IMG/VR virus record: IMGVR_UViG_2703718861_000013
DNA: 64,000 nucleotides
Reading direction: 5' to 3' (one strand)
Source of the DNA: a virus
Lineage: Duplodnaviria; Heunggongvirae; Uroviricota; Caudoviricetes
Made by a program: the position numbers and the translations under genes. The notes under the pieces were generated by a model that was given only the letters and a program-made list of their open reading frames with translations, ran no database searches and was not told the DNA's origin. This document shows, piece by piece, positions 1-30,821 of this stretch; position 1 is the stretch's first letter; every line of letters begins with the position of its first letter.

Positions 1-188
1 GATACGGGGTAAGCCGCCCGGATAATCCCGACAGTAATACGCTGGGGTTACGTAATGCCCTGGCAATTGCTGGCGCGAAAAATGGTATCCGTGAAGCCGA
101 ACAGGATCGCCAGATGAACATACTGACGGGGGCTTCTGCACCGGCAAGACAGAAACTGAGTGTTGGCGGACAACTGGTGGCAGCGTAA
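1..188 (+). CDS. 3' end of an upstream phage ORF (partial, C-terminus ...GGQLVAAA)
   Basis: Open frame entering from the left edge, stop at 186-188, followed by RBS of next gene. Confidence 0.3.
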   Translation, partial: YGVSRPDNPDSNTLGLRNALAIAGAKNGIREAEQDRQMNILTGASAPARQKLSVGGQLVAA

Positions 189-197
189 GGAGGAAAT

Positions 198-449
198 ATG
201 GGGTACGGCTTACTGGATATTGCGAATCAGTCACGGCGTGAGGCATTACAGGGAATAAGTGACGCAGACCGACGACGTGAAGAAATTGAGGCTGCGAACA
301 AACAGATGGCGGCGCAACAGAAAGCGCAGAACAAGCAGAATATCGGTACGGGCATTGGTACGGGGGCGGCTATTGGCGCATCCGTTGGTGGTCCTGTTGG
401 TGCTGTTGCTGGAGCAGTAATTGGCGGCATTGCTGGTTCTTTGTTTTAA
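198..449 (+). CDS. small phage protein with charged N-half and Gly/Ala-rich glycine-zipper-like hydrophobic C-terminus
   Basis: 83-aa ORF, AAGGAGG RBS just upstream; C-terminus GTGIGTGAAIGASVGGPVGAVAGAVIGGIAGSLF. Confidence 0.5.
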   Translation: MGYGLLDIANQSRREALQGISDADRRREEIEAANKQMAAQQKAQNKQNIGTGIGTGAAIGASVGGPVGAVAGAVIGGIAGSLF

Positions 450-459
450 GGAGTGGTGA

Positions 460-1725
460 ATGAGCGGATTTGCACAGGGGTTACTTGCCGGATTCAGCAC
501 GGTTGACCAGGCAATGACCCGTCGTAAGGAGCTTGGTCTGCGTGAAGCACAGCTTGCCCGGCAACAGAAAAATAACGAGCGCGATTTTGAGTTTGCGCAG
601 TCTCAGTTTGAACATAATAAAAACGTTGATCAGCGGAACTTTGATTACAGAGCCAAAGTTGACGACCGTAATTATGCACTGAAGGAAAGGGAGTTTAACG
701 CTAACCAGAATTACCGGAATGCGTCGCTGGGTATGGAGCAGCAGCGACTCCGGATGCAGAAATACAACCAGCGACGGCTTGAGTATAACGATATGCTGGC
801 GCGCGATCAGCCTGTGATGGCGGCGCTTGGAAAGGCTGTGGATGCTGGCGATCGGGATGCAGCAATGCGTCTTTACGGCCAGTTGTCAGAGGGTAATCCG
901 CTGAGGCTGATGGCGAATGATGGCTATGTAGCGAAAGCGGGTCAGGCCGTGAACAACCTGCAAAAAATCTTTGATGACAAGCCAGACAGGGCTATCGCTT
1001 CACTTAATACGCCGGAGAATCTTGATGTCCTTTCCGGGGTGTTTGGCCCGGAACTGCAACAGCGTATTGGCATGCCCGATTCAACCGGGAAAAAGACGAT
1101 AAAAGAGGCCAGGATTGGCAGTATAGTACCGGCACAGCAGGAAGGGTACATACTTATCGGCCTTGATCTCACATACAGTGATGGCTCTACAGCACATAAA
1201 CCTGTAACAGAATACGGCAGTGCGCACCCTGATGATCAAACCGTGCTGGCGATACCCGTTGATAAGGCTATCGCTCAGGTCAGGGATCGCAGCAAATTTG
1301 CAGAGATATCGAAAAATTATGGTTATTTTATGCCGAAGCAGCAGGGACTTTCTCTGAAAGAGCTTCAGAAGGGGGCCAGCAACGTCGCGGCGGACGCGAT
1401 CAAGAATGGCGGTAATGCACAGGCTGCGGTGGATGAATATTATGCTGCGACTGGTTCACAACCGCATCAACAGAAAATTCAGCAACAAAAACTTCAGCAA
1501 CAGGTTATCAACTGGGCGGGAGATGATCCTGATAAGCTGTCATTTGCCAGAAATGTAGCGGCCCGTCAGCCTGAAATGCTGGAGCCTCAGAATCAGAAAT
1601 TGCTGGAGAACGGGTATGCGAATTTTCTCCGTATTCAAAAGGCCAGGGGGGAACAGGCCAGAGATGAAAGTGCTTCATCTGCATCTCAGTTTATCCGTGG
1701 ACTGAAACAGAATTACGCCCAGTAA
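460..1725 (+). CDS. hypothetical phage protein, Q/N/R-rich, 421 aa
   Basis: ORF with AAGGAG RBS, tightly packed after previous gene; no catalytic motif recognised. Confidence 0.55.
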   Translation: MSGFAQGLLAGFSTVDQAMTRRKELGLREAQLARQQKNNERDFEFAQSQFEHNKNVDQRNFDYRAKVDDRNYALKEREFNANQNYRNASLGMEQQRLRMQKYNQRRLEYNDMLARDQPVMAALGKAVDAGDRDAAMRLYGQLSEGNPLRLMANDGYVAKAGQAVNNLQKIFDDKPDRAIASLNTPENLDVLSGVFGPELQQRIGMPDSTGKKTIKEARIGSIVPAQQEGYILIGLDLTYSDGSTAHKPVTEYGSAHPDDQTVLAIPVDKAIAQVRDRSKFAEISKNYGYFMPKQQGLSLKELQKGASNVAADAIKNGGNAQAAVDEYYAATGSQPHQQKIQQQKLQQQVINWAGDDPDKLSFARNVAARQPEMLEPQNQKLLENGYANFLRIQKARGEQARDESASSASQFIRGLKQNYAQ

Positions 1726-1757
1726 TTCACGATATTCCATTAATACCATTTCCTGAT

Positions 1758-1783
1758 GCCCGGCCATTGTGCCGGGTTTTTTT
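1758..1783 (+). terminator. GC hairpin plus T-tract (intrinsic terminator-like) between the 421-aa gene and the giant gene
   Basis: gcccggc-cattgt-gccggg followed by ttttttt. Confidence 0.4.
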
Positions 1784-1794
1784 ATGGAGTCTGT

Positions 1795-4700
1795 ATGGCC
1801 TATTCAGAGGAACAGCGTCCTGAGGCGCAACTCGGTAACCAGAATCGTAACAGCCTGAACATTCAGCAACCCGGCGAAACTGACAGCTATGAAGCATTTT
1901 TCTCTGATCCGAATCGCTGGAAGGATAACAGTACGTCGTTCAGCCTGGGCGATGTATTGCCAACAATGGGTAAAGGTTTCGCCCAGTCCGTCCGGGGAAC
2001 AGGGGAAATGGCCCGTGGACTCGGTGATGCGATGATTCAGAGCCCGGTAAAAACAGGGGCGCGTATTTTAAATGAGTTCAGCCGTATGGGGCTGCCGGGT
2101 GTCGCAACTGTGCAGGATATTTTTGCCGGTGGCAGCAGGGGGGCTGATGAGGTCATCGATACCCTGCCTGATGGCAAAAACGCGGTTACTGATACTGTCG
2201 GTAAAGGTCTGAAGGCAACCGGTAAGGCTGTCAGTGATGGTGCTGAAGCCACTGATGAATGGCTGACCGGTAAGATGTCGCCGGGTGCAGTTCGTGCGCT
2301 GAATACGCCGATGACCGAAGGCTATGATGATTCTGCGGTCTGGGTGGCGAAGGGTGTAAACCTGATTGGTGCGCTTGTACCTGATATGGTTGCTGGCGGT
2401 GTGGCTAAAAAGGTGGGTGATGTCACACTGCGAAAAATGCTGACCGCCGGGCTGGAGAAAAAATACATCGCGGCAGGGATGCAGCCGGAAAGAGCCACGG
2501 CACTGGCAGCAGAAGCTGTCGATAAAAAAATGCCGGATTTATTCCAGGCGGGCCTGATCACCCATTCCACAGCCAGTGCACAGGGGCAGAGTGCAATGGC
2601 GGCAGCAGATGCTGTTCTTAATGCGGATTACTCTGAGCTGGCGCAGTCACCGAAATTTCAGCAGACGTTTTTGTCCATTGACGCCGACCCGCAGCACGCA
2701 CAGCTTACTGATCGCCAGAAAATGGATCTGGCAAAAGAGCGTGTTGCCGATGAGGTGCGCGCGCAGCTGGCAACCGATCCTGAATTGCTGGCTGTGAATG
2801 CCATGGCGGCAAAACTGGGTGACGCACAACTGTTTAATCTGGTGACACGAGGCACAGCGAAGACCGTTAAAAGCGGCATTGTCAGAAATGCCACGGAACA
2901 GGGGGCGATTAATGCGGCGCAGGGCGGCTATTCACGCTATCAGGAAAACACGGCATTGCGTGAGACCGCCGGAATGGATGTGTCACCGTGGGAGGGCGTG
3001 GCTGACGCAACGATCGAAGGTGCAGCCTTTGGTGCTGCGATGGGGGCTCCATCCGGTGCGGTTGCCGGATATCGTGGCAGACGTCAGGCCGCAGAAGAAG
3101 CAGCCATGCGTGATGCTGAAACCGTGCAGCAGGACGACGCAGCCCCGCAACCAGAATCTGTTGATCCGGTGGCGCAGCATCGTGAATCCATGCAGGGGAT
3201 GAATCGCGAGCAGCTTCTGGAGCAGTATGCTGATGCGGATATGGCAACAGAGGGGGACGCATCCGCAGCTCATCGCCGGGAAGCTGCCAGCCAGTTGTTG
3301 AATGAACTGGACGAACAGGCGAAGCGACAGGCTGTGATGAATGAGCTGAAGGCGAAGCCGCGTTCTGAACTGCTTGAGGAATACCGCAGACTCAGCCAGA
3401 AAGAGGAGCGCACCGAGACTGAAGAACAACAGTTTCAGGCAATACGAGAAGTCATTCGCCCACAACAGGAAGTGACGCCGGAAGCACAGTCACAGCCTGA
3501 AAATGCGGAGGATGGTAACGGGAGCATTTACCCGACGGTGCGGTTCCGGGACCCGAATGAAGTCCGCATTGAAATTAACGGGAATGGTGCGTCCAGACCA
3601 GCGGAACGCATTGAAAAGGTGCGCCCGGACAACCGTTATTTCACGGATGAGAAAAGCGCCATGGGGAGTGATGTTTTCCGTAATGCCGCCGCCACCGGCC
3701 TGAAACCGTCCGTAGTGAAGAAAGGCGAGACTCAATATGCTGTTGAAATGGATAATCCTGCGTTCTCTGAAGATGTGGCAACGGAAACCATTAACACCCT
3801 GGCTGACGGAGAGCGTATTGCTGATGCTGACCCGATGGAGCAGCCCGCGTTCATGCGTGACCCACGATTCCGTGGTTTCACGGGGGATGATACGGAGGTA
3901 CAGGCCCGCCTTGCCCGTGGCAACGTGCCGACGGCAGAGGAGCTTGTACGTTCACAGATGGCTGAAGGTGATGCCGGTCCGACAGCACAGGAGTTAACTG
4001 AGCGTCCACGCCTGCCCGCTCCCGGCGATATTCATCCCGGACAGGGATATCCGTTACCGGGAGAGGTGGCGCGTACGCCGGATGAGAATCAGGCAGGACG
4101 TGGTGGTCGTTTTACCACAACCGGTGAGGTTAAGGGCCAGAGTTTCCAGAAAGGACAAGCTCTGGCACCGGAAAACGCCGCTGGTCGCCAGGGGGAAACA
4201 CTCGAGGGTGAAATGGTTCGTCGTGGTCTGCCGTCACCGGATGCGCAGAACGCGACAGCACCGGTACGTGAAGGGCTACCGGCTCCGGACATTACACACA
4301 ATGTCCGTATGCCTCAGCCTGATCAGCTTCCCCGAACTGTTCGTAACTCATTGCCTGAGCTCGCACAGCAGGCAGAAGTACGTCGACAGGCCGGAGGAAA
4401 TCGTGACATCCCGCAGCCTGAGACAATCGCACCTGAATCTGAAACAACAGTCGCTACTGACAGGGAAGCTACCGTGCGCGGAGGTGAAGTCAGGGGCAAA
4501 AAAATTGAAGACTTTGGTGAAGAAATTAAGGGCGCGGCAAAACACCGTTATGCACAGCTTGCTGAAACACTGGGTAAAACGCTGGAAGACAGGGATTATG
4601 TCACGCAACCGCTGAGCAAACTGTTCCCGAAACCGGACTACGCAAAACTGGCGAGCGAAGGGGCTGATGCTGACACCCTGGCAATGATAGCGCTGTATCG

Positions 4701-7700
4701 TAGCGATATTCCGGTGAAGACGAAACACAATACGGCAGGCTGGGGGGAGAGCGTAAAAAAAGTACGACACAGTGTATCGGAAATGCTGAACGGAACGGTC
4801 AGCGCGAAACGCCTCGCAGAATGGATGGAAGGCAGAATGCCCTCCCGTTACGCGGACACCTGGCAACTGTTACGCACTCTGCCACCCTCACAGATGGACA
4901 AGGCTTCTGCTTATCGGGTGGTATCGGGTGTGTATCAGGCGGCAGGAGGGAAGCGTTACGATCCGCCACAGAAACTTTATTCACTGCGCAATAAGGACAA
5001 TAAGGGGAGTAACCTCTTTTTCTCGGAAAGCAGGGATGAATTACTGGCAAAGGCGAAAGTCTGGTTTGCAGAGCAGGAGGAAAAATCACAGGCGAAAGGT
5101 GATGAAAAAACAGCACCGTCTCCGGATGACAAAATCCGCTTTGACGTTTACCGGAATACCCGCAGTGGCGATATTTTTATCGCTTACGGTAAAAACAAAA
5201 TGCGGGTGAGAGGTGGCTTTAAGTCAGCCAGTGATGCGCGTAAGTACATTGATTTACATCGTGATGAGCTTGTTCGTCATGTGAAGGAGATGCGGGAGAT
5301 TTCGCGTGAGGAGCAGCGCAACGCCACCAACCGCGACCGTACCGGACCAGAACGCCGCAAGGGGGATGTTTCACCGGAGCAGTTCAGTGATGCGTTTGGT
5401 TTTCGTGGTGTGCAGTTTGGTAATTATGTGGAAAGTCCGCGTCGTCAGGCTGATTTGAACCGGGCTTATGACTCGCTGCATGACCTGGCTGACGTGCTGA
5501 ATGTACCGACAAAAGCGCTTTCTCTGAACGGTCGTCTTGGGCTTGCTTTTGGTGCCCGTGGTAAGGGTAAGGCGGCGGCACACTATGAGTCAGGTGAGGT
5601 GGCAATCAACCTGACAAAAGGTAACGGACCGGGTGCGCTGGCGCACGAATGGTTCCATTCTCTGGATAATTATTTTGGTCGTTATGACGTTTCCAGTGAC
5701 GGGAAAATTACGTCAGGTGGCGACTTTATGACGGAAGCACAGCGTGTCAGGCGCATATTTAAAGACGGCAGGTATGTTGATGCTGAATATCCGGTACGTC
5801 AGGAGGTTTACGACGCTTTTAAAGGTGTGATTCAGGCCATTAAAAACAGTGACATGCCGCGTCGTTCAGCGCTTCTTGATGAGGTGCGCTCAAAACCGTA
5901 CTGGTCAACGGATGTTGAAATGGCGGCACGTGCCTTTGAGCGTTATGTTCAGGATAAGGCGCGTATGGCTGGCGTGGAGAATGATTATCTGGTCAATATC
6001 CGTAAGGCACCTGAGCACAACACAGATAACACCTACGCTTATCCGACGAATGCGGAACTGGATGGCGGTATTCGTGAGGCATTCGATCACCTGTTCCGCA
6101 CCCTGAAAACCCGTGAGACGGACAAGGGCGTTGCGTTTTATTCCCGTAAGGGCATGACCCGCACACCTGAAGGTAATCTCATTTCGGATGTTAACCGTAG
6201 TGCGGAAGCCAAAGGCAGCCCGGTCCCGCAGGTTGAAGCGGTTGCCCGTGGCGTGATGAGCGGCATTAAGGACAGTGACCTGACGGTCCGTGTGGTGAAG
6301 TCACAGAAAGAGGCTGAAGCGCTGGCGGGTGAATCGTTCGACGGTTACGGCAGGGTGCACGCATTCTATCGTCCGGATAAACGAGAAATTGTCCTGGTGG
6401 CGGATAACATCCCTGACGGGCAGACCGTACGCGAGAAGTTGCGTCACGAGATTATCCACCATGCCATGGAGCATGTTGTCACGCCAGCGGAATATCAGAC
6501 GATTATCAAAACCGTGCTGAAAACCCGCGACAGTGATAACGCCACCATCCGTGAAGCCTGGCGTAAGGTTGATGCGTCCTATGGTAAGGAATCACCGGAA
6601 GTACAGGCGGGTGAATTTCTGGCACATATGGCGGAGAAACAGCCGAATAAATTCGTGGCGGCATGGGAGCGTGTTGTTGCCCTGGTCAAAGGGGTACTGC
6701 GTCGTACGGGGTTACTGAAGCCGACGGAACTGAACGATATCAGACTTGTTCGCGAGACCATCCGTACGTTAGGCCAGCGTGTGCGGGAAGGTTACACGCC
6801 GCGTGAGGATGGCGTGGGCGCATCGTCTCAGTACTCCCGTAGTGGTAAGCCTGATCCGTTCAAAGTGCCGGAAGGTGAGGGTGAACGTTATCGCGATGAC
6901 CTTGCCAGAATGATGAAATCTCTGCGTACCACAGATTTAACGGTAAACATCGGGCGTACGCCGCCGGTATTGCGTCACCTTGGTGCACCGGATTTGCCGC
7001 TGGTTATTTCCCGCGATACTGTGCGGAAGGCCACCAATGGTGTGAAACATGTGGTGCCGATGGATGTTATCGAGAGACTACCGGAACTGATGCACGATCC
7101 GGATGCAATTTACCGCTCAGCGACAGAAAGAAATGCGGTTGTGATGCTGCTTGATGCCGTGGATAAAAATGGTGATCCGGTAGTGTCTGCGGTGCATATG
7201 AAGGCAACCCAAAAACTTCTGGAAGTTAACCGTATTGCTTCTGTTTACGGAACGGAAAACGGGAAAAAACTGAAGAGTATGGAAACGGCTGGCTTAACAT
7301 TATACAGGAGAGAAAAACTAAACCCTGATGGTTCTCTGTACAGAGGGCTCCAATTGCCCAAAGATGAGCACTCCCGTCAGGGTTCTGCGGATAAAATACT
7401 CTATCCTGAAGATATTCGCAAGGGGCCGTATTACTCCCGTACCAGCAGTCTGACACCGGAAGAGACAATTGCATCGCGTTTTGTGCGCCAGATGCAGGAT
7501 AAATTCCAGGTGCTGAAAGCTGTTCAGGAGAATATCCGTAAAACTGGTGGAAAAATAGACGACAGTAACAACGCTTATATGGCGGAAGAACTCTTCCACG
7601 GGAAGGCGGAAAACGACCTGAACGTGATGAAGGAGCGCTACGTTCAGCCACTGGCTAAATTACTGGCGGACTACAAAATTGCGCAGGCCGATCTGGATGA

Positions 7701-10176
7701 GTACCTCTACGCCCGTCACGCGCCGGAACGTAACGCGCATATCGCGAAAATCAACCCGAAAATGCCGGACGGCGGTTCGGGGATGACCAACGCGGAGGCG
7801 GCGGAAATCATGCAGCGTGTACGTAACAGCGGCAAACAGGCACAGTATGACCGTCTGGCAGGGATTGTTGACGATATGCTGGCCCGTCGCCGTGAGCTTA
7901 TCCGTGAGGCAGGACTGGAAGAGAGCGGCGTGGTGGATGCCTGGCAGAAAGCCTACCGTTACTACGTTCCCCTGAAAGGGCAGGATGTTGACGGTGTGGT
8001 GTCACTGCCACGTACAGGCAAGGGATTCACCATCGGCGGGCGTGAAAGTAAGCAGGCCATGGGGCGCGCATCCCGCGCACAGTCTCCTTCCACTCAGGCG
8101 ATACAGGATTTGAGCGAATCACTGATCCGCAATCGCAAAAATGAAGTGGGTAACGCCTTCCTGAAACTGGTACAGGATAATCCCGACAAGGATTACTGGC
8201 AGGTATTCACCGATGACAGACCGGATACCATGCGGACGATTGCAGAGCGCAAGGACAAGGAAACTGGTGAAACCATTCGCGAAGTTGTCGAACGCCCTGT
8301 ACCGATGGCAATGATGGCAGACCGGTACTTCACCACCAAAAAGAACGGCAAAACGTACTACATCAAACTCCATGATCCGCGCCTGATGCGTGCGATGAAG
8401 AATATGGGACCGGAAACCAGTAACGCCGTAATCCGCACGCTGGGGAAAGTTAACCGCTTCCTGGCAACGGTGAACACGTCGTATAACCCGGAATTCCTGG
8501 TCAGTAACTTCATCCGTGACGTACAGACGGCGGTGATGAACCTGAAGGCGGAGCAGGGAAGGAGCGACGGCAAACTGAAAGGGCTGGATAACTTATCCGC
8601 ACTGGCTGTGGTGAAAGACAGTCGGTCTGCCATGTCTGCCGTATACGCCAGTCTGCGTGGTAAAACCCTCACGGGCAACGGTGCGCAGTGGCAGAAGGTG
8701 TGGAAAGAGTTTGTTGAGGACGGAGGTAAAACCGGCTGGTTTAACATGGGTGACCTTGAAGGCCAGCAGAAGGAAATGGATCGCCTTGTATCGCTGGCGA
8801 AGGGAGGATGGAAAGGCCAGAGTATCGGTGCATGGAATTCGTTCCTTAACCTTGTCGAGGATGCCAACGGGGCGGTTGAAAACGCTCTGCGTCTTTCTGC
8901 CTATAAACACGCCCGTGATGCCGGTTTGTCACGCCAGCAGGCGGCGTCTCTTGCCAAAAACATGACGGTGAACTTTAACCGTCGTGGTGAGCAGGGGGCG
9001 CTGATGAACTCGCTGTACATGTTCGCCAACGCCAGTATTCAGGGAACGGCAAATCTGGTGAGAACGCTCGGACATCTTAATGGTGAGGGACCTTTACTGG
9101 AGCGCCTTCGCTGGAAGAATCTGAATGTTCCGCAGAAAATCGCGCTTGCCGCTGTGGGAGCGGGTTATCTGCTTGGCTCGCTTAACCGCAGCGTGGCGGG
9201 TGAGGATGATGACGGGGTTAACTGGTATGACAAAGTACCGTCTCATGTGAAAGAGCGTAACCTCGTCATTATGAAATCGGTGTTCGGGGGCAAGGCCGGA
9301 GAGTACTGGAGTATTCTTCTGCCTTACGGGTACAACGTTTTCTTCCTGCTTGGTCACACAGCCGAAGGGGTGGCAGCGGGCGACCTGACCGCTTCACGTG
9401 CTGCCGGTAATGTTGTTGGTGGTGTGCTTGGGGCATTCAGTCCTGTGGGCAGTGAAACGTCGGAAACACTGTCCGGGGCATTGCTGAAAAATGCAGCGCC
9501 GACCATTCTGCGTCCGTTTGCGAACCTTGCCATGAATGAAAACTTCATGGGGGCGCAGATTTACCAGGAGAACATGCCGTTTGGTACACCAAAACCTGAC
9601 AGCCAGCTGGGAAGACGTTCAACGCCAGAAGCGTACAAGGCGTTTGCATCCTGGCTGAATGCGTTCTCAGGTGGCAGCCAGTACCGTCCCGGCGCGGTGG
9701 ATATCACACCGGAATCGCTGAAATTCTGGATTGACTATATCTCCGGAGGGACAGGGCGCTTCATTTCCAAAACCACGGATGCGGCGGTGAAATCGCTGAA
9801 TGGTATTGATATACCGGAACAGCAGGTGCCCTTCCTGGGGAAAATTTCGGGGGAGGTGATGCCGTATGCAGACCAGCAGAAGATGTACGACCGGATGACA
9901 GAGATTGCGCAGTATCACGCAGAGCTGAAGAGTCTGACCGGTGCAGAAAGAACGGCGTTCATTGACGAGAACAACGGAAAATTGTCGATGAACGGGCTTA
10001 TGCAGGATACCCGGAAGAGACTGAAGGATTTGCGTAAACAGCGTGATGCCATTTATGCCGACAGTTCTCTCAGTCTGGCGCAGCAGGCGGCGATAGTGAA
10101 ATCGGTAGAGCGGGATATGAAGGTTGCCGTGGATCGCTTTAACCGCGAGTACAACAAAAAAGTGGGAGTGGATTAA
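1795..10176 (+). CDS. giant multidomain phage protein (~2793 aa) with two zincin-like HExxH motifs (HEWFH, HEIIHH); possible polyvalent or virion-delivered protein
   Basis: Single uninterrupted 8.4-kb ORF; start chosen at first ATG after the hairpin (MAYSEEQ...); motifs at nt ~5641-5660 and ~6440-6460; no Walker A or methyltransferase motif seen. Confidence 0.8.
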   Translation: MAYSEEQRPEAQLGNQNRNSLNIQQPGETDSYEAFFSDPNRWKDNSTSFSLGDVLPTMGKGFAQSVRGTGEMARGLGDAMIQSPVKTGARILNEFSRMGLPGVATVQDIFAGGSRGADEVIDTLPDGKNAVTDTVGKGLKATGKAVSDGAEATDEWLTGKMSPGAVRALNTPMTEGYDDSAVWVAKGVNLIGALVPDMVAGGVAKKVGDVTLRKMLTAGLEKKYIAAGMQPERATALAAEAVDKKMPDLFQAGLITHSTASAQGQSAMAAADAVLNADYSELAQSPKFQQTFLSIDADPQHAQLTDRQKMDLAKERVADEVRAQLATDPELLAVNAMAAKLGDAQLFNLVTRGTAKTVKSGIVRNATEQGAINAAQGGYSRYQENTALRETAGMDVSPWEGVADATIEGAAFGAAMGAPSGAVAGYRGRRQAAEEAAMRDAETVQQDDAAPQPESVDPVAQHRESMQGMNREQLLEQYADADMATEGDASAAHRREAASQLLNELDEQAKRQAVMNELKAKPRSELLEEYRRLSQKEERTETEEQQFQAIREVIRPQQEVTPEAQSQPENAEDGNGSIYPTVRFRDPNEVRIEINGNGASRPAERIEKVRPDNRYFTDEKSAMGSDVFRNAAATGLKPSVVKKGETQYAVEMDNPAFSEDVATETINTLADGERIADADPMEQPAFMRDPRFRGFTGDDTEVQARLARGNVPTAEELVRSQMAEGDAGPTAQELTERPRLPAPGDIHPGQGYPLPGEVARTPDENQAGRGGRFTTTGEVKGQSFQKGQALAPENAAGRQGETLEGEMVRRGLPSPDAQNATAPVREGLPAPDITHNVRMPQPDQLPRTVRNSLPELAQQAEVRRQAGGNRDIPQPETIAPESETTVATDREATVRGGEVRGKKIEDFGEEIKGAAKHRYAQLAETLGKTLEDRDYVTQPLSKLFPKPDYAKLASEGADADTLAMIALYRSDIPVKTKHNTAGWGESVKKVRHSVSEMLNGTVSAKRLAEWMEGRMPSRYADTWQLLRTLPPSQMDKASAYRVVSGVYQAAGGKRYDPPQKLYSLRNKDNKGSNLFFSESRDELLAKAKVWFAEQEEKSQAKGDEKTAPSPDDKIRFDVYRNTRSGDIFIAYGKNKMRVRGGFKSASDARKYIDLHRDELVRHVKEMREISREEQRNATNRDRTGPERRKGDVSPEQFSDAFGFRGVQFGNYVESPRRQADLNRAYDSLHDLADVLNVPTKALSLNGRLGLAFGARGKGKAAAHYESGEVAINLTKGNGPGALAHEWFHSLDNYFGRYDVSSDGKITSGGDFMTEAQRVRRIFKDGRYVDAEYPVRQEVYDAFKGVIQAIKNSDMPRRSALLDEVRSKPYWSTDVEMAARAFERYVQDKARMAGVENDYLVNIRKAPEHNTDNTYAYPTNAELDGGIREAFDHLFRTLKTRETDKGVAFYSRKGMTRTPEGNLISDVNRSAEAKGSPVPQVEAVARGVMSGIKDSDLTVRVVKSQKEAEALAGESFDGYGRVHAFYRPDKREIVLVADNIPDGQTVREKLRHEIIHHAMEHVVTPAEYQTIIKTVLKTRDSDNATIREAWRKVDASYGKESPEVQAGEFLAHMAEKQPNKFVAAWERVVALVKGVLRRTGLLKPTELNDIRLVRETIRTLGQRVREGYTPREDGVGASSQYSRSGKPDPFKVPEGEGERYRDDLARMMKSLRTTDLTVNIGRTPPVLRHLGAPDLPLVISRDTVRKATNGVKHVVPMDVIERLPELMHDPDAIYRSATERNAVVMLLDAVDKNGDPVVSAVHMKATQKLLEVNRIASVYGTENGKKLKSMETAGLTLYRREKLNPDGSLYRGLQLPKDEHSRQGSADKILYPEDIRKGPYYSRTSSLTPEETIASRFVRQMQDKFQVLKAVQENIRKTGGKIDDSNNAYMAEELFHGKAENDLNVMKERYVQPLAKLLADYKIAQADLDEYLYARHAPERNAHIAKINPKMPDGGSGMTNAEAAEIMQRVRNSGKQAQYDRLAGIVDDMLARRRELIREAGLEESGVVDAWQKAYRYYVPLKGQDVDGVVSLPRTGKGFTIGGRESKQAMGRASRAQSPSTQAIQDLSESLIRNRKNEVGNAFLKLVQDNPDKDYWQVFTDDRPDTMRTIAERKDKETGETIREVVERPVPMAMMADRYFTTKKNGKTYYIKLHDPRLMRAMKNMGPETSNAVIRTLGKVNRFLATVNTSYNPEFLVSNFIRDVQTAVMNLKAEQGRSDGKLKGLDNLSALAVVKDSRSAMSAVYASLRGKTLTGNGAQWQKVWKEFVEDGGKTGWFNMGDLEGQQKEMDRLVSLAKGGWKGQSIGAWNSFLNLVEDANGAVENALRLSAYKHARDAGLSRQQAASLAKNMTVNFNRRGEQGALMNSLYMFANASIQGTANLVRTLGHLNGEGPLLERLRWKNLNVPQKIALAAVGAGYLLGSLNRSVAGEDDDGVNWYDKVPSHVKERNLVIMKSVFGGKAGEYWSILLPYGYNVFFLLGHTAEGVAAGDLTASRAAGNVVGGVLGAFSPVGSETSETLSGALLKNAAPTILRPFANLAMNENFMGAQIYQENMPFGTPKPDSQLGRRSTPEAYKAFASWLNAFSGGSQYRPGAVDITPESLKFWIDYISGGTGRFISKTTDAAVKSLNGIDIPEQQVPFLGKISGEVMPYADQQKMYDRMTEIAQYHAELKSLTGAERTAFIDENNGKLSMNGLMQDTRKRLKDLRKQRDAIYADSSLSLAQQAAIVKSVERDMKVAVDRFNREYNKKVGVD

Positions 10177-10299
10177 CAGAAATGGCCCCGTACGGAAGTG
10201 CGGGGCTGATTAAGGAATAAACACACATTAACCTGTAATAACCGGAGCTATTAACATATAGTCAGAAAGAGTATTTCATGTGAGACAGAGAGCCGATTT

Positions 10300-10491
10300 A
10301 TGTTTAATGAAGAAAAAGTTGCGCAAATGGCAGCGTATTTGCTGAAAAAGCATGGCGGATCTATGCGTTTCATTAAGCTGATGAAGCTGATGTATCTCTC
10401 TGACCGCAAAGCAATGGAGTCTTTAACCGGGAAGGGGAGAGGTTTGAATGCTCCCCCACAATTCCCCGGCATCAAATCTCCATGCAGGTGA
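10300..10491 (+). pseudogene. short ORF resembling the N-terminus of a DUF4065/Panacea-domain protein, apparently truncated
   Basis: MFNEEKVAQMAAYLLKKHGGSMRFIKLMKLMYLSDRKAMESL... then low-complexity tail and stop after 63 codons. Confidence 0.3.
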
Positions 10492-10577
10492 ACTATTTTA
10501 CCCCCAGCGGCAAATCGCAAAAACAATCAGTGCGATCGAAATGGCAGCCACTACAATTGCAAATGCTTCAGGCTAGG

Positions 10578-11504
10578 TCATTGGCTTACCTCCTTCGGCG
10601 GTTCTGGTAGCGGCATCCAGTGGGTTACTTCTTTGAGATGCAGGTCTTCGCCATCACCGTCATCCCAAGTGGGATTGCCATCATTAAACCAGTCGCCATA
10701 TACGCCGACCTGAGTGTTGGGGATGCTTGGTGGGTAGTTGTTTTTAAAGTCAGCTGCTAACACATAGTATTGTCGCTCTCCCATTTCTGGCATTCGATCA
10801 CTACAGCTTATCCAACCATCCGGAGTTACCGGAACTGGCGGAACGGCTGTTTGCTCTCGAACGTCATTAGTCGCTATCGGTTCTGCTGCCAACTGACTGG
10901 CATATTTGTTAATGGTAACGATAAGCTCTTGCTCAGCCTCATCCAGACAATCACCGATACCTCGCCTGTCACCGTCAAAATCATCGAAATCGGCACGAAT
11001 CTTGGCAACCTTCTGGATTGCGGACAACACCTCACTAGGAATTACCGGATAGTTGGTTGACGTTTCCGCGATTTCCCGAAAATTATTGGTTGACGAATTC
11101 TTGTTTTCCCGAAAGTTTCCGGACTGAAGCATGGCGGCGCGGCAGGCATTCCAGCCTCTTACCTCTGCAATAGCGGCAACCGCATCAACCGCGTACATGC
11201 TAAGAGGATTAGGCATTGGTTTTTCTTCCGGTACTACTGGTGCTGGAGGGGCGGCGTAAATGCCCTCTATCACTAAATGTTTGCGCTCAAAATCATCTGG
11301 CTCTCGATGATATACGTAACTCCAATCACCAAGGTTATCATTGCGCCTGCAACGGAAACCTATCGGCTCGGCTTCCAGCGCTGCCAGAGCAATTCGTGCC
11401 AGTTCTTCCGCTTCTTCTGCTGGCAGTACAACGTTGCTACCAGGTCCGTATGTTTCGCGCCACTGCTTGATTGTCAGTAGTCGCTCTTTGGTAATAGTGA
11501 TCAT
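10578..11504 (-). CDS. phage protein with DUF551-like C-terminus
   Basis: 308-aa ORF; C-terminal ...YGDWFNDGNPTWDDGDGEDLHLKEVTHWMPLPEPP pattern typical of DUF551 as I recall it. Confidence 0.55.
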   Translation of the reverse strand: MITITKERLLTIKQWRETYGPGSNVVLPAEEAEELARIALAALEAEPIGFRCRRNDNLGDWSYVYHREPDDFERKHLVIEGIYAAPPAPVVPEEKPMPNPLSMYAVDAVAAIAEVRGWNACRAAMLQSGNFRENKNSSTNNFREIAETSTNYPVIPSEVLSAIQKVAKIRADFDDFDGDRRGIGDCLDEAEQELIVTINKYASQLAAEPIATNDVREQTAVPPVPVTPDGWISCSDRMPEMGERQYYVLAADFKNNYPPSIPNTQVGVYGDWFNDGNPTWDDGDGEDLHLKEVTHWMPLPEPPKEVSQ

Positions 11505-12046
11505 GCCGCGTTTCCTTCTTTCTTATTAACAATTACACCGTCATATATTTCATTAAGGTGCCCTCTCAACTCCATGCGCCTTAATGCAGATAACATGTAA
11601 TCGCATTCAACCTGCTTATTCCCAATAAAAGGTTTATCTTCAGGGTTACCCCAACAGCAATTCCCCTTGGGCCATCCATGTACTTTCCGTACTCTTCCGT
11701 TAACAACGTGAAGTAATCCCCAGCCAGGTGGTAAATCCTCAATTGAAATAATTCCCGGCTCACTAATAAAGAATCGCCAGTCGCCCATTCCAAGAGACGG
11801 ATTTTTACGAAAACGCTTTTTTCTATCTGCCAACAAGTCAGCACGAGAACATTTCGCCTCTATCAGGCATGATGCTGAATTTCTGAATCCCATAGCATCT
11901 GGCTGTTCTCCGGTACTGGTTACAGCTATAAAGCGGTCATGAAAACAAACCTTGAACCCGTTGCGCTTAAGGAACTTGTACGCAATCTGACAGAGTTCGC
12001 GGTGTGTTAACGCCATATCACTCTCCTTTGATGCGAATGCCAGCAA
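11501..12046 (-). CDS. hypothetical phage protein, possible PD-(D/E)xK nuclease fold
   Basis: 181-aa ORF overlapping neighbours by 4 nt; D...E.K spacing (PDAMGF...CLIEAKCS). Confidence 0.45.
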   Translation of the reverse strand: MLAFASKESDMALTHRELCQIAYKFLKRNGFKVCFHDRFIAVTSTGEQPDAMGFRNSASCLIEAKCSRADLLADRKKRFRKNPSLGMGDWRFFISEPGIISIEDLPPGWGLLHVVNGRVRKVHGWPKGNCCWGNPEDKPFIGNKQVECDYMLSALRRMELRGHLNEIYDGVIVNKKEGNAA

Positions 12047-12968
12047 GCCAGTTTCTTATGCCGATATATTCAGCGTTCCGGAAACCGCTTTTTACATATA
12101 TAAATGGCAAGCGAAGATTGTGACCATTGACTGCCAGGTAGTCTTTACAACCCTGTTCGGTGAAACAGCAGGTAACGAATTCATCAATATCTTTCACAGC
12201 AACGCGCCGCCATTTTTCTGGTGGCTCTCGAAAGTTTTCATGAAGTAGCTCGAGACGACGACTATGGCGTTTATTGGCTTCATTGCCATCTTCGTCAACC
12301 CAGACAATCCGGTCATGGTCATAATCAGCATCAACAACGATTTCGCGCTTTTGATACACACAAAACATGGGATCTGACGTTATTCGATTGTCCTGTGTTC
12401 GAATATTTTCACCGATGATGCCAAACGAATCTGGTGCAGATTTTGTCTGCATCTCTTCGATACGTTCAGCCATCGCAGCACACTCTTCAAAGTTGCTTAA
12501 TGCTTTTCGCTCCCATTCGGCGCATTGTTTTTCCAGTTCTGCTATGCGCTTACTTCCATCCGCGATTACTCCCTCGTAATATTCACGCTGCTCGTTGAGT
12601 TTTGATTTTGCTGTTTCAAGCTCAACGCGCAGCTTCCCTACCGTAAGCGCAATATCCTCGTTCTCCTGGTCGCGGCGTTTGATGTATTGCTGGTTTCTTT
12701 CCCGTTCATCCAGCAGTGCCAGCACGGTAGCCGGATTGGCTGCGGCGATGAATTCAGCATTGGCCTGCTGTTCCATTTGGAAATCTTCATCGAAACCGCT
12801 TTCAGGATGTGCTCCTTCAATTCTGCAAATGGGAATATATCCAGCAGCCTCGCGATGAATTAGTGCATCATCACCATCAAATCGGTTCTCTCCATATTCG
12901 AGCGACCACTCACCACGCGTTGCTTTTTCTGCCTTTTCACGCAGTACCTGATAGTTAATCTCGCTCAT
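12018..12968 (-). CDS. Ea22-like lambdoid accessory protein
   Basis: N-terminus MSEINYQVLREKAEKATRGEW resembles Ea22-family starts; long coiled-coil middle. Confidence 0.5.
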   Translation of the reverse strand: MSEINYQVLREKAEKATRGEWSLEYGENRFDGDDALIHREAAGYIPICRIEGAHPESGFDEDFQMEQQANAEFIAAANPATVLALLDERERNQQYIKRRDQENEDIALTVGKLRVELETAKSKLNEQREYYEGVIADGSKRIAELEKQCAEWERKALSNFEECAAMAERIEEMQTKSAPDSFGIIGENIRTQDNRITSDPMFCVYQKREIVVDADYDHDRIVWVDEDGNEANKRHSRRLELLHENFREPPEKWRRVAVKDIDEFVTCCFTEQGCKDYLAVNGHNLRLPFIYVKSGFRNAEYIGIRNWLAGIRIKGE

Positions 12969-13239
12969 TTTTCTCTTCGCTCCGGTATACAAGAATTACA
13001 ACGTCACCTCTGCTAATTACGCGAGCTGGATCTCCTGGCTCCATGCTGTCAATCCCGAAGGCTTCGGAAAACGCATTCATTGCCTTCTGGCGTTGATCCT
13101 GCTTACGGCATTTATTCCATTTTTTCAGTAACAACAGCGATAGCCACCGCCCGGCGCAGAACATAATGTAAAAATAACCAAGAAGCGCCAGACCTGTGTT
13201 GAGGGCCGTATCGATCGTTATAGTGGTGTCTATGCTCAC
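12955..13239 (-). CDS. small hydrophobic protein
   Basis: 94-aa ORF in operon context, hydrophobic N-terminus. Confidence 0.4.
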   Translation of the reverse strand: MSIDTTITIDTALNTGLALLGYFYIMFCAGRWLSLLLLKKWNKCRKQDQRQKAMNAFSEAFGIDSMEPGDPARVISRGDVVILVYRSEEKNERD

Positions 13240-13457
13240 TTCACACCTCTCTGTTTGTTGATAAGTTCAATATCCTGCTGGCAACTGGCGCAAGTTCGGC
13301 ATCCGCGAACAGCCTGGCGTCGCCGCTCATCTATCGGATCGCCACACTCGCAACAATGAGTAGCAGATGGGGCATTACTTTCGGATTTGTATTTTTGCAG
13401 GGAGAGATTGCGCTGCAATTCTTCGATTTCAGCGGCATTGTCGATGATATCTGCCAT
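13236..13457 (-). CDS. TraR/DksA-type C4 zinc-finger protein
   Basis: 73 aa with CCECGDPI...CRTCASC four-cysteine spacing. Confidence 0.6.
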   Translation of the reverse strand: MADIIDNAAEIEELQRNLSLQKYKSESNAPSATHCCECGDPIDERRRQAVRGCRTCASCQQDIELINKQRGVK

Positions 13458-13504
13458 TTTCCTTTCCTTCAGGCATGAAAAAAGGAGCCGAAGCTCCTTT
13501 GGTA

Positions 13505-14128
13505 TCAGAATTCAAATTGTCTTGCTCTTAGTTGCGCTAGCATACTTCTGGCCCTATGCACCATATAGTTGGCGGGATCAAGTTTTGCTGCTTCGCGGAG
13601 CAATGTGTCGCGAGTCCGGTTGGTTATATGACGAGTCTCGTAGGCCAGATCAAACAGTTTCCCGTAGTAATCAGAATTCAGTTCTCTCATGACGGGGTAT
13701 AGCTGCTTACTGAGTTGTTGTGCTTTTTCCATCCAGAGTTGAACGTAGCAGAGCAGGATGATGTCTTCTGCTGTGAATTGCTGCTCAGTTTGTACTGGCT
13801 GAATGTTGCGAAGTTTCTTTTCGCACTCGATGAAGTATCGGCGTATCTGGCGGCCTTTTTCGTTACGTTCAACCATCGCAAGCTCTTTGGCTGTGTCGAG
13901 GGTGAGGTGGTAATCCTTGCGGCGGCGGCCTGGAGTTTTCGCCAAATTTGGCGAAAATAGAATGTAGTCTAAATTTTCTACGAATCCATACTCGTTTAGC
14001 TTGGCCCGTATCCAGTTAGAAAAATCTTTACCTACCTCTAAAAATCCATGCAAATCACGCGCGTTCACCAGAAGCGTAGGTTCATTTGAGATTGTACCTT
14101 CAAACACAGGGATGAGTTGAGTGGTCAT
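13505..14128 (-). CDS. AntA-like phage antirepressor
   Basis: MTTQLIPVFEG...LLVNARDLHGFLEV...FSNWI...DYHLTLDTAKELAMVERNEKGRQIRRYFIECE; RBS AAGGAGG before the internal Met chosen as start. Confidence 0.6.
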   Translation of the reverse strand: MTTQLIPVFEGTISNEPTLLVNARDLHGFLEVGKDFSNWIRAKLNEYGFVENLDYILFSPNLAKTPGRRRKDYHLTLDTAKELAMVERNEKGRQIRRYFIECEKKLRNIQPVQTEQQFTAEDIILLCYVQLWMEKAQQLSKQLYPVMRELNSDYYGKLFDLAYETRHITNRTRDTLLREAAKLDPANYMVHRARSMLAQLRARQFEF

Positions 14129-14377
14129 GATGACCTCCTTTGGCTTTTTTCGAGAAATGCCACCACAAAATGTGGTGCCGGGAGGCTCGAAACGGCCCAA
14201 AAGATACCGCGGACTTATTCCCCTTGCGGGTGTTGTATTCGTCGCCCTCCCGACATTGATCGGGGATGTGACCGCACACTGTGCTATCACTGAATAACAG
14301 GCATAAAAAATCCAACACTGACGGGGTTGGTTTAATCCGCTTTTGGGAGGTTTTCGAGGCCTCGGCGCGGAGTATAG

Positions 14378-14665
14378 TCAGTATTGGACGCAGTCGTCAA
14401 CCATCGCCGTTTCTTTGGCTGTGTCGAGGGTGAGGTGGTAATCCTTGCGGTTGTGACCGCCTCTACCAGATGTTTGCTTTCCCAAATTGGAAAGCAAAAT
14501 ATAGTCTTGATTTTCAATGAATTCGTATTCTGAAATGCGATTTGTAATCCATGCCGCAAACACCTTTTTCACGCCTAAAAAAGCATGCAGATCGCGGGCA
14601 TTGCAGAGTAGGGCTGTTTCGTTGTCGATAGTGCCGTTGAATACGGGGATGAGTTGATTAGCCAT
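14378..14665 (-). CDS. truncated paralogue of the AntA N-terminal domain (95 aa)
   Basis: MANQLIPVFNGTIDNE...NARDLHAFL...DYHLTLDTAKE; shares a 36-bp identical stretch with the upstream paralogue. Confidence 0.45.
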   Translation of the reverse strand: MANQLIPVFNGTIDNETALLCNARDLHAFLGVKKVFAAWITNRISEYEFIENQDYILLSNLGKQTSGRGGHNRKDYHLTLDTAKETAMVDDCVQY

Positions 14666-14992
14666 AATTATGACTCCTGACGTTTTAGTATTGACTGCCA
14701 CCTTAGTGGGGTGGCGGGCTTCAACTACCGCGTCAGACGGCGGAGCGTATTTCCCGAAAGGGTATTGTATTAGGCTCTCTCGACCCGCCATTGATATGGC
14801 GATACCTGTAAACAGGCATAAAAAAGCCGCAAAGCTATCGGGTGCGGTTGACCGCTGACGTTGTAGTGCAGTCAGTATGCGATAGCTCTGGCAGATTTGT
14901 CAAATCGTGCAGTAACATCCTTTTCTTCCTTGCCATTTCTCAATGATGACAAAGGGTGGATTCGGATTGGTATTGGGACAAAAGTGAGACAC

Positions 14993-15026
14993 ACAAAGCT
15001 TTGCATCGGCTTACAAAGCTTTGCAT
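14993..15026. repeat. two 14-bp direct copies of acaaagctttgcat, each containing the palindrome caaagctttg, 20 bp centre to centre
   Basis: Read directly; sits ~75-105 bp inside the element end next to ynfG. Confidence 0.6.
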
Positions 15027-15099
15027 GTTTTTCAATGTTGGGACGTGTGAGCGCAGAAATGACGGGCTATCTAATTGATTTTAAACGATACGTAACCAA

Positions 15100-15184
15100 C
15101 TTTAAAATCTTTGCACGCCAGTTCGCAGGTTTTACAGCCAGTACAGCGGCTGGAATCGATAAAAAATCCATATTGTGTGGTCAT
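15100..15184 (-). pseudogene. ynfG: 5' fragment of ynfG (Fe-S subunit of DMSO-reductase-family enzyme), truncated by insertion
   Basis: Minus strand reads MTTQYGFFIDSSRCTGCKTCELACKDFK then diverges into VGYVSFKIN-stop. Confidence 0.8.
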
Positions 15185-15194
15185 GGGCTACTCC

Positions 15195-17621: not shown

Positions 17622-17678
17622 TACTCACTTATTGCTTTTCAAACAAAATGTCATGCCAGAATTTATGATTGTCGTGGG

Positions 17679-18705
17679 TTATATTTTTTCGATCTCGACC
17701 AGATTAGTGTGCTGCGGGTTTCCCTTCGCCAGTGGTGAAGGGCGCAGAGTGGTTAGCGTATTCACACAGCCGCCATGGTCGATTTTATCGCCAGACATAT
17801 TGGCCTCGTGCCAGGCTCCCTGGCCCATAGCGCTAACTCCAGGGAGAATACGTGGTGTTACTTTGGCTGGTAGCCGAACTTCGCCACGATGGTTAAACAC
17901 CCGCACCATATCGCCGTTGGCAATCCCACGTTTCTGCGCATCTATAGGGTTGATCCACACCTCCTGACGGCAGGCAGCCTTCAGGAGATCAATATTGCCG
18001 TAGGTCGAGTGAGTACGGGATTTGTAATGGAAACCAAACAGTTGCAGTGGGAAGGTTCTACGTTCAGGGGAGTCCCAGCCTTCAAAGGTAGAGGCATAAA
18101 CTGGCAGTGGGCTTATCACTTCATCTTTTTCCAGTTCCCAGGTACGGGCAATTTCCGCCAGCTTGCTGGAATAAATTTCAATCTTACCGGAAGGTGTTTT
18201 AAGTGGATTTGCCTCGGGGTCGTCACGAAATGCTTTGTAGGCGACAAAATGACCATTGGGATCTTTACGCTTATAGATACCCATTTTTTTCAGTTCGTCG
18301 TAAGACGGTAACGCCGGATCTTTGGCAAGCATTTTGGCGTACAGATGTTGTAACCATTGTTCCTGCGTGCGACCTTCAGTGAACTTTTGATAGACGTCAG
18401 GTCCAAGACGTTTCGCGACTTCACTCAGGATCCAGTAAATCGGTTTGCGTTCGAATTTTTCGCTGGTGACAGGCTGGAGGAAAATGAGATATCCCATGTT
18501 ACCGGCGTAGTCGTTAGGAATAATATCTTCCTGCTCAACGGTCATCAGGTCTGGCAGCAGAATGTCGGCATATTTTGCCGATGAGGTCATAAAGTTTTCG
18601 ATGACCACAATCATTTCGCATTTCGATTCGTCCTGCAGAATTTCATGCGTTTTGTTGATGTCAGAATGCTGATTAACGAGGGTATTTCCCGCGTAGTTCC
18701 AGATG
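17679..18705 (-). pseudogene. ynfE: 3' part of ynfE, separated from its 5' part by the 6.5-kb insertion
   Basis: Frame reads ...IWNYAGNTLVNQHSDINKTH... to a normal C-terminus; upstream codons are element-derived. Confidence 0.85.
18695..18705. repeat. left copy of 11-bp direct repeat agttccagatg (candidate att core)
   Basis: Identical 11-mer at 25258-25268; both lie at the ynfE/element junctions. Confidence 0.6.
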
Positions 18706-18770
18706 GACTCCATTGTCAGACGGATGGATGGACTTGAAGTAGTTGACTCAATGCTACTTAAGGTCCTGAT

Positions 18771-20354: not shown

Positions 20355-20361
20355 GTAGGAA

Positions 20362-20409
20362 GACCCAAGGTGGAGACCATATACGGCTTGATGGTTGAGA
20401 CCTTGGGTC
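20362..20409 (+). other. perfect 9-bp inverted repeat (gacccaagg / ccttgggtc) with 30-nt spacer just after int
   Basis: Read directly; possible terminator or RNA processing hairpin. Confidence 0.4.
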
Positions 20410-29390: not shown

Positions 29391-29595
29391 GAACATAAAT
29401 CCATTTTATCAATAAGATAAGAGGAAGTGTCAGCTGACAAAAGGTATTCTATTTCATCTTTTGTCAACCATTCACAGCGCTAATATACGCCTTTTTTTGT
29501 GATCACTCCGGCTTTTTTCGATCTTTATACTTGTATGGTAGTAGCTCAGTTGCGTAGATTTCATGCATCACGACAAGCGATGCAAGGAATCGAAC

Positions 29596-30810: not shown

Positions 30811-30821
30811 GGAGTAAGATA

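Follow-up and report, generated by a model that had tools for sequence, protein, structure and literature searches.

A giant multidomain protein of short-tailed Shiga toxin phages as a likely internal virion protein with a predicted carrier-and-cargo layout

The DNA considered here, 64,000 nucleotides from a tailed-phage record of IMG/VR (IMGVR_UViG_2703718861_000013) and referred to throughout as the window, contains one very large gene (positions 1795-10176, + strand) encoding a protein of 2,793 amino acids (aa). This giant is likely an internal virion ("ejection") protein of short-tailed Shiga toxin (Stx) phages, and it probably passes into the bacterium with the DNA. The gene, its essentiality, the virion association of its product, its polyvalent domains, and the ejection-protein proposal have all been published already. 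New here are the placement and family of both HExxH domains, with the rejection of two published labels, and the finding that aa 900-1680 form a stand-alone cassette embedded in the giant. Also new are the description of a carrier module (its size, its strictly C-terminal placement, and its structural novelty) and a cysteine-free signature held in common with proven ejection proteins.

The gene and its product in the virion

The list of open reading frames (ORFs) contains a single uninterrupted frame on the + strand from 1756 to 10176. Translation more likely begins at 1795 than at 1756, because the ATG at 1795 is preceded by GGAG and lies just past a terminator-like hairpin (1758-1787), at whose foot the ATG at 1756 sits. 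The product, of 307.9 kDa and with no Cys, matches PHROG 616 over its full length. By sequence, the gene is ORF80 (ECs1242) of Sp5, gp47 (vb_24B_48) of phi24B, and gp68 of Shigella phage 75/02 Stx. Its DNA is 99.9% identical to that of 75/02 Stx and 97.3% identical to that of VT2-Sakai/Sp5, and the protein is 96% identical to phi24B gp47. The copies of the window, Sp5, and phi24B differ in nothing material: the length is 2,793 aa in the first two and annotated as 2,807 aa in phi24B, the protein is encoded by the last large gene of the morphogenesis (late) operon behind the same 83-aa and 421-aa genes, and the window copy is nearest to that of 75/02 Stx. At thresholds of at least 90% identity and at least 80% coverage, the gene is present in 186 phage records, all of short-tailed Stx-converting phages of E. 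coli or Shigella, and the frame is uninterrupted in these records at 90-99.9% identity. The first-pass annotation of the window had correctly described a single 8.4-kb ORF but considered it unusual for a temperate coliphage; within its own group, a gene of this size is normal. A Salmonella relative of 2,931 aa is 76% identical over the C-terminal module and shares the order of Pfam domains.

The G+C content of the gene is 53-56%, compared with about 47% in the adjoining early-left region (window positions 1-10000 and 10001 onward, respectively). Its coding strand is strongly purine-rich, with a GC skew of +0.12 to +0.16 and an AT skew of +0.10 to +0.14. In GenBank records, the region is split into many small "hypothetical proteins" (19 in AP005153), and the antisense ORFs vb_24B_50c, 51c, and 52c have been placed within it. 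These small-ORF and antisense annotations are very likely artefacts.

Genetic evidence comes from Sp5, in which deletion of ORF80 yields neither plaques nor lysogens, a defect that is complemented, and leaves DNase-resistant DNA and head morphology normal (Mondal et al., 2016; PMC5155283). Mondal et al. called ORF80 (2,793 residues) a tail-formation gene and reported a COG1483 AAA+ match (PMC5155283). The null phenotype, in which DNA is packaged and the particle is non-infectious, fits that of an ejection protein. Because the giant is essential for infectious particles, it belongs to the core infection machinery and is not only an accessory effector.

Physical evidence comes from phi24B, whose gp47 was found in purified virions, is absent from the cryo-electron microscopy (cryo-EM) map, and was noted to contain LPD5, LPD1, LPD38, and MuF-C (bioRxiv 10.64898/2026.04.10.717836). 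Bubenchikov et al. (2026) proposed that gp47 is a packaged ejection protein (bioRxiv 10.64898/2026.04.10.717836). As tabulated in the preprint's supplement, its spectral count of 10,962 is second to that of the capsid protein only, which bears out the earlier suggestion that the giant is packaged. The top four slices hold 62% of the gel-slice counts given there for gp47, so most of its signal lies at the top of the gel. The copy numbers given per virion are about 11-35 for gp47, 30 for gp48, 36 for gp50, and 22 for gp51, all label-free intensity estimates that, according to the authors, can be off 1- to 3-fold (bioRxiv 10.64898/2026.04.10.717836). Like gp47, the three smaller proteins are present in virions and unlocated in the map. 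Roughly 40% of the particles in the cryo-EM sample were emptied. The head of phi24B has T=9 geometry, as in the N4-related Pseudomonas phages Moo19 and B2 and in Ralstonia phage GP4. Compared with the T=9 head of N4, it contains 12.5 kb less DNA, and by a rough estimate the difference equals about 6 MDa of protein, or the volume of some 20 copies of the giant. A location inside the head is proposed because the 96%-identical phi24B protein is present in virions, is missing from the map, and has copy estimates in this range.

A further line of evidence is amino acid composition. Five consecutive Stx-phage late proteins (218, 148, 83, 421, and 2,793 aa) contain no Cys in 3,663 residues; the first two correspond to 75/02 Stx gp64 and gp65, whose genes lie just upstream of the window start. 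Among 17 other late-region proteins, the Cys content is 0.8-2.3% in ten, 0.5% in the capsid protein, and zero in four, including both tail-fiber proteins. Cys is likewise absent from N4 gp50, gp51, and gp52 (4,294 residues), from P22 gp7, gp20, and gp16, and from T7 gp15 and gp16, and T7 gp14 has one. The signature is not diagnostic, because some non-ejected proteins (scaffolds, fibers, and the N4 capsid protein) are also free of Cys. As a feature of sequence, it supports placing all five clustered genes in the putative ejected set.

Domain architecture

The first-pass annotation took the giant for a multidomain polyvalent protein, and the Pfam matches agree with it: LPD5, LPD1, MuF_C, and LPD38 all score above their curated cut-offs. 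Both the polyvalent-protein concept and the definitions of the LPD and PBECR domains go back to Iyer, Burroughs, Anand, de Souza, and Aravind (2017; PMC5512222), whose study consists of predictions only and whose main text does not mention Stx or 933W. With that class the giant shares LPD5, LPD1, MuF_C/PBECR, LPD38, a zincin of the phage-type clade, and a context of virion genes. Several other architectures are absent, as had been noted from the sequence at the outset. The giant has no Walker A motif (GxxxxGK[ST]), no methyltransferase or helicase match in Pfam at E<=0.1, and no internal repeats in a self-BLAST. It is also neither a tape measure nor a repeat adhesin, since it comes from a podovirus and lacks such repeats. 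A sequence search of the whole giant against the PDB returned nothing meaningful.

The N-terminal module (aa 1 to ~430; 1795-3084, + strand) is lineage-restricted. It matches 55 clusters, and every named one is from E. coli or Salmonella. Hydropathy and weak Gly-zipper matches mark two weakly hydrophobic, glycine-zipper segments in it (aa 181-199 and 407-425). The module is followed by a linker of about 480 aa rich in E, Q, P, A, and R (aa ~430-900; 3085-4494, + strand), which falls on the disordered side of the charge-hydropathy line and is predicted to be disordered. Profile searches gave no family matches for this linker.

Embedded at aa ~900-1680 is a full copy of a protein that occurs widely on its own, as a family of 480-890 aa. 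These proteins carry, in order, a helical "IEDFG" domain, LPD5, and a zincin, and the longer members add a second HExxH domain. Alignment of the giant with the stand-alone proteins starts at KIEDFGEEIKGA. The "IEDFG" domain and LPD5 together occupy aa 901-1200 (4495-5394, + strand), with the Pfam LPD5 match at aa 1051-1200 (E 1.2e-44). AlphaFold2 (AF2) models this region in blocks with a predicted local distance difference test (pLDDT) score mostly of about 80-90.

Both HExxH motifs pointed out by the first-pass annotation lie within this cassette, and both are kept in homologues of 30-45% identity. The first, LAHEWFHSLDNYFG, is at aa 1281-1294 (HEWFHSLD, aa 1284-1291; 5644-5667), and the second, RHEIIHHAMEHV, is at aa 1550-1561 (HEIIHH, aa 1551-1556; 6445-6462). 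A protein composed like the giant would be expected to have 0.036 HExxH motifs by chance; among 20,000 shuffled sequences, 0.045% had two or more.

The first motif belongs to a predicted CLCA_X-type zincin domain (aa 1182-1440; 5338-6114, + strand) that also contains AAAHYE. Residues 1182-1437 align with NCBIfam NF041907 (CLCA_X) over the full model (profile positions 3-245 of 250; E 5.9e-44), at 150 bits compared with the curated 260-bit cut-off of the stand-alone subfamily. Pfam LPD1 (E 1.1e-23) covers just the C-terminal third of this domain, so the HExxH motif lies outside every Pfam match. HEWFHSLD agrees with the CLCA_X active-site consensus HExxHxxxD, set out when the family was defined (Lenart et al., 2013; PMC3650047). 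The H, E, H, and D of the consensus are invariant in an alignment of 12 sequences of 50-59% identity and in another of 30 sequences. In the 12-sequence alignment, the invariant residues are H1263, E1265, H1284, E1285, H1288, D1291, E1375, and E1382. The domain also fits the phage-type metallopeptidase (MPTase) clade, in which a His ends strand 2 and an Asp lies three residues past the motif (PMC5512222). Its AF2 topology consists of strands, the HExxH helix, and a helix carrying a Glu. CLCA_X proteins are mainly phage- or plasmid-borne and often lie within very long proteins, and their protease function was inferred from sequence conservation alone in the 2013 family paper (PMC3650047). A profile of the domain found no match in the PDB, and a Foldseek search with a 981-aa multi-domain model returned only a non-significant match to anthrax lethal factor (E 2.5). 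The self-cleaving metalloprotease CLCA_N may offer an analogy to the predicted zincin of the giant.

The second motif lies in a zincin-like domain (aa ~1490-1680; 6262-6834, + strand) that has no family match in Pfam, NCBIfam, or the PDB. It is retained as HExxH or HExxxH in distant homologues, and AF2 places it on a helix that follows three strands.

Downstream of the cassette is a MuF_C domain (aa 1750-1837; 7042-7305, + strand; Pfam E 1.6e-17, 63.9 bits with a cut-off of 27.6). MuF-C was defined as a PBECR domain, a predicted ribonuclease (RNase) belonging to the barnase/EndoU/colicin/RelE-like group, with a catalytic configuration of a His within the N-terminal helix plus a Ser or Thr in strand 4 (PMC5512222). 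The domain of the giant is predicted to have an RNase-like BECR fold; its H1752 is invariant among eight homologues, and candidate Ser/Thr residues are conserved as well. Foldseek matches of the model to the RelE and HigB toxins were weak and not significant.

Two published labels are rejected on these grounds. The phi24B preprint describes a "MuF-C metallopeptidase" that digests peptidoglycan. This is a misreading, because MuF_C is a PBECR domain of BECR fold and the real HExxH domains lie elsewhere, neither of them tied to peptidoglycan. The "AAA+ ATPase" label of Mondal et al. (2016; COG1483) does not hold either, as the giant has no Walker A motif and no match to an ATPase family in Pfam or NCBIfam.

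The C-terminal part of the giant, a conserved module of about 900 aa (aa 1880-2793; 7432-10173, + strand), is called here the carrier module. It contains LPD38 (aa 2476-2681; 9220-9837; Pfam E 3e-46) and weakly hydrophobic helices at aa 2443-2551. AF2 models the module with confidence (pLDDT 83.4, predicted template modeling score 0.79), and the predicted fold has no solved structural relative. A phmmer search of 1.84 billion representative sequences found 8,554 representatives at E<=1e-3. Among the best 150 of these, the match lies at the extreme C-terminus in nearly all, in proteins of 1,800-5,181 aa, and a few are stand-alone carrier-module proteins of about 890-1,050 aa. The upstream partners vary and include ART-PolyVal (PF18760), methyltransferases, InPase, or the LPD5 cassette. 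The module occurs in 101 Vibrio phage and 31 Ralstonia phage records, in Bcep22, in Ruegeria phage 45A6, and in Bacillus phage Page; named carriers include the Ralstonia phages Heva, RPZH6, Alix, and YL4, Bcep22, and Vibrio podophages. On KOPF15-1 scaffold_740 (3386-14251), a European Nucleotide Archive metagenome contig from an unrelated phage, the giant is split into adjacent genes for proteins of 2,181 and 1,416 aa, at the end of a same-strand run just before an integrase gene, and the second of the pair bears the C-terminal module. This pair is a natural "unfused" version that is useful for placing module boundaries.

Proposed role and competing explanations

Among characterized phages, N4 offers a parallel in gp50, its virion RNA polymerase. 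This 3,500-aa giant is carried at a few to tens of copies in the T=9 head of a podovirus, cannot be seen in averaged maps, is built as beads on a string with long linkers, has no Cys, and follows a small and a medium ejection protein in gene order. Iyer et al. (2017) also predict a zincin (MPTase) region in it. Unlike gp50, the Stx giant has no RNA polymerase domain, and the two C-terminal modules are unrelated, since hhalign detected no similarity of the carrier module (E 0.28) or the CLCA_X domain to the C-terminal domain of the N4 polymerase. A weak hhalign similarity between the second HExxH region and the HExxH region of that N4 domain (E 0.0033, probability 9.6%) is not relied on. Ejection and function have been demonstrated for the N4 protein, whereas for the Stx giant we infer them.

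The order of small, medium, and giant genes in the Stx cluster is that of N4 gp52/51/50 and of T7 gp14/15/16. Like the putative Stx set, T7 gp14/15/16 and P22 gp7/20/16 are essential internal proteins with no or almost no Cys, encoded after tail-tube or needle genes and rising in size along the cluster. The Stx giant differs from them in being two to five times larger and in its predicted enzymatic cargo, which is other than a transglycosylase. Between the giant and the characterized ejection proteins T7 gp14-16, P22 gp7/16/20, and N4 gp50-52, no homology was detectable.

Homology does extend to the Lessieviruses and their Ralstonia relatives. The carrier module is 27-30% identical over 59-83% of its length to Bcep22 gp75, JC1 gp69, and the Ralstonia proteins. 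JC1 gp69 (4,515 aa) is virion-associated by mass spectrometry and encoded at the end of the morphogenesis module, after virion proteins of 196 and 510 aa, and the JC1 head genes are homologous to those of 933W. These proteins differ from the Stx giant in length (4,500-4,600 aa), in their DarB-like annotation, and apparently in cargo, that of the Stx giant being LPD5, two zincin-like domains, and PBECR.

From these comparisons, the following course of events is proposed. Late in infection, expression of the gene that closes the morphogenesis operon would yield the giant, about 10-35 copies of which would be placed inside the T=9 head along with the four proteins encoded upstream (218/260, 148/161, 83, and 421 aa). 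By analogy with the N4 polymerase, it may be held there as loosely folded domains on long flexible linkers, which would make it invisible in averaged maps. Release of the tail needle at the receptor would allow the giant to leave by the portal-tail channel, either before the DNA or together with it. The C-terminal module of about 900 aa would be needed for packaging, for a conduit across the envelope formed with the smaller partners gp48-gp51, or for both. A carrier role of this kind is proposed because the module has an invariant C-terminal position, occurs as a stand-alone protein, and belongs to a gene that is essential as a whole. The swappable upstream domains (the LPD5/CLCA_X zincin, the second zincin, and PBECR) would be the cargo delivered into the cell. 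To judge from their family assignments, the likeliest substrate of the zincins would be either the polyprotein itself, released as functional fragments, or a host target, and that of the PBECR domain would be RNA. A Cys-free composition would fit unfolded passage through the oxidizing periplasm. At the level of sequence, the invariably terminal module and its variable partners support a carrier-plus-cargo architecture.

Several observations weigh against this course of events. ORF80-deletion heads were not bound by an anti-tail-fiber antibody, a result given as "data not shown" (PMC5155283), which suggests a role in tail attachment or stability. The giant has no strongly hydrophobic transmembrane segment, its maximum in a Kyte-Doolittle 19-residue scan being 1.38. 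The reading of the second motif as a zincin is drawn from the motif and the predicted topology only, and the CLCA_X score of the first domain is below the subfamily cut-off. The 1- to 3-fold latitude in the copy numbers applies here as well. Before mass spectrometry the sample had spent six months in storage, which prevents the low-molecular-weight tail of the gp47 signal from being read as processing. Finally, we know of no such tail-fiber defect in the classical P22 ejection-protein mutants. The lack of antibody binding to ORF80-deletion heads, the main difficulty for the model, suggests that internal proteins are needed for stable tail attachment.

The antibody result is also the main argument for the account of Mondal et al. 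(2016), in which the giant is a tail-assembly factor or component, possibly energy-using, that builds or stabilizes the short tail and is not injected. The heads concerned, from ORF80 and ORF79 deletions alike, are DNA-filled and normal-looking, and the phi24B authors remark that "internal tail contents" may constrain tail orientation. However, a protein of 308 kDa in an estimated 19 or so copies would leave much mass unassigned in a 22-nm tail, and the AAA+ label behind the "energy-requiring step" is unsupported. The missing antibody signal could equally reflect unstable tails on core-less heads, and this account is considered unlikely. The abundance and map-invisibility of the protein, and a genome 12.5 kb under that of N4 at the same T number, with room for some 20 copies, could also be explained if the giant were packaged without being ejected, as an internal scaffold, a DNA-organizing core, or a pressure filler for a short genome. 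A filler would have no need for catalytic-type motifs, such as the invariant HExxHxxxD residues and the invariant PBECR His, or for enzymatic cargo that is swapped across thousands of relatives. The Cys-free state, like that of proven ejected proteins, argues for transit of the periplasm, and retention of the giant in the head appears quite improbable.

An anti-defense effector resembling P1 DarB, purely accessory and dispensable for the mechanism of infection, is suggested by the "DarB-like antirestriction" annotation of carrier-module relatives in Bcep22 and Ralstonia phages and by the prediction that polyvalent proteins as a class are effectors of early-phase conflict (PMC5512222). P1 DarB is a putative methyltransferase/helicase with N6-adenine methyltransferase and helicase domains, neither of which gave a match to the giant in Pfam or NCBIfam. 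Comparison with P1 DarB gave a best BLASTP E value of 0.63 and, for the C-terminal-module profile, an hhalign E value of 0.29, in keeping with the first impression that the protein is not of DarB type. Moreover, deletion abolishes infection of a standard K-12 host and does not merely lower its efficiency. The phenotype of the whole-gene deletion already rules out that the full protein is purely accessory, and this explanation is considered very improbable. A last alternative is a fusion artefact of several genes, which the first-pass annotation had named as a possible refutation; the genes would have been merged by a sequencing error or by mutation in this one prophage. The middle and C-terminal modules do exist as separate genes elsewhere, and the region is broken into many small ORFs in some records. 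Nevertheless, the same open frame is found in the 186 independent phage records, most of the phi24B gp47 mass-spectrometry signal reported in the preprint is at the gel top, and the 2,931-aa Salmonella relative has an identical domain order; a fusion artefact is refuted.

The ejection-protein reading thus keeps its standing as the likely one. The hedged view taken from the sequence, that of a polyvalent protein possibly packaged and injected to counter host defense, is supported as far as it is testable; injection, anti-defense activity, and protease activity are putative. A bolder generalization can be stated, which as a whole is more doubtful than probable. In it, the carrier module would be a universal packaging-and-ejection carrier and, with the four small Cys-free partners, would form an undescribed type of podovirus ejectosome that threads interchangeable cargo (zincins, RNase, ART, and methyltransferases) into the host. 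The Stx CLCA_X zincin would then cut the polyprotein after entry, and the absence of Cys would be a general signature of ejected proteins.

Genomic surroundings and implications

The two genes upstream of the giant, for the glycine-zipper and Q/N-rich proteins reported by the first-pass annotation, are both confirmed. The first (198-449, + strand) encodes an 83-aa Cys-free protein with a C-terminal glycine zipper, homologous to phi24B gp49 and assigned to PHROG 594. Its best match among the Pfam Gly-zipper families is YMGG, which is weak and under the curated cut-off (E 9e-6). Reference records label this protein "bacteriocin". In phi24B virions, gp49 (83 aa) was detected at a low level, and the authors discounted it as a contaminant on annotation alone (bioRxiv 10.64898/2026.04.10.717836). 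Its position, its lack of Cys, and this low-level detection suggest a genuine virion protein, a candidate small internal or membrane-inserting virion/ejection protein.

The second gene (460-1725, + strand) encodes a 421-aa Cys-free virion protein with a Q/N-rich N-terminal part, the counterpart of Sp5 ORF79 (ECs1241) and 94% identical to phi24B gp48. Deletion of ORF79 in Sp5 gives non-infectious particles with DNA-filled heads and behaves like deletion of ORF80 (PMC5155283). The 421-aa protein is an essential partner of the giant. Searches of Pfam, NCBIfam, and the PDB gave no match for it; in Vibrio phage D67, the gene for a weak homologue lies some 7 kb upstream of where the carrier module matches.

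Between this gene and that of the giant is the terminator-like G+C hairpin (1758-1787, + strand), identified by a consensus scan and from the sequence, as the first-pass annotation had also observed. Its arms, GCCCGGCC-ATTG-TGCCGGGT, are followed by a T-run. In the consensus scan, terminator-like sites were not enriched in the region (9 found, 11.4 expected). Q antitermination reads through the late operons of such phages. No role is assigned to the hairpin, because such sites are not enriched and the late operons are read through by Q.

The right end of the Stx prophage lies inside the window, with the phage match stopping near 15,100. From 10578 to 15100 (- strand) are leftward accessory genes for DUF551, Ea22-like, DUF4752, DksA-like zinc finger, and antirepressor proteins, a segment that shares 97.8-99.7% identity with Shigella phages POCJ13 and 75/02 Stx. 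The next 17 kb or so, between the prophages (~15100-31976), lie outside the top-listed matches in the phage database. A second, lambda-like prophage occupies ~31976-64000. Its integrase, excisionase, and exonuclease VIII, the last being an 823-aa ORF (33668-36139, - strand), are at least 99% identical to phages HannyBb, PhiR42_1, and Tritos. Its other large ORFs are terminase-like (700 aa; 51731-53833), portal-like (526 aa; 53970-55550), and tape-measure-like (1,031 aa; 60669-63764).

Short-tailed Stx phages are vehicles by which Shiga-toxin genes spread in E. coli and Shigella, and the gene described here makes up about 14% of their genome. If the giant is indeed an ejected carrier of a protease and an RNase, it would be both the entry machine of these phages and the first phage activity in a new host, which would matter for host range and for how new toxigenic strains emerge. 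Because the same module is found in thousands of uncharacterized giant phage proteins, a single experimental answer would provide annotation for a very large family.

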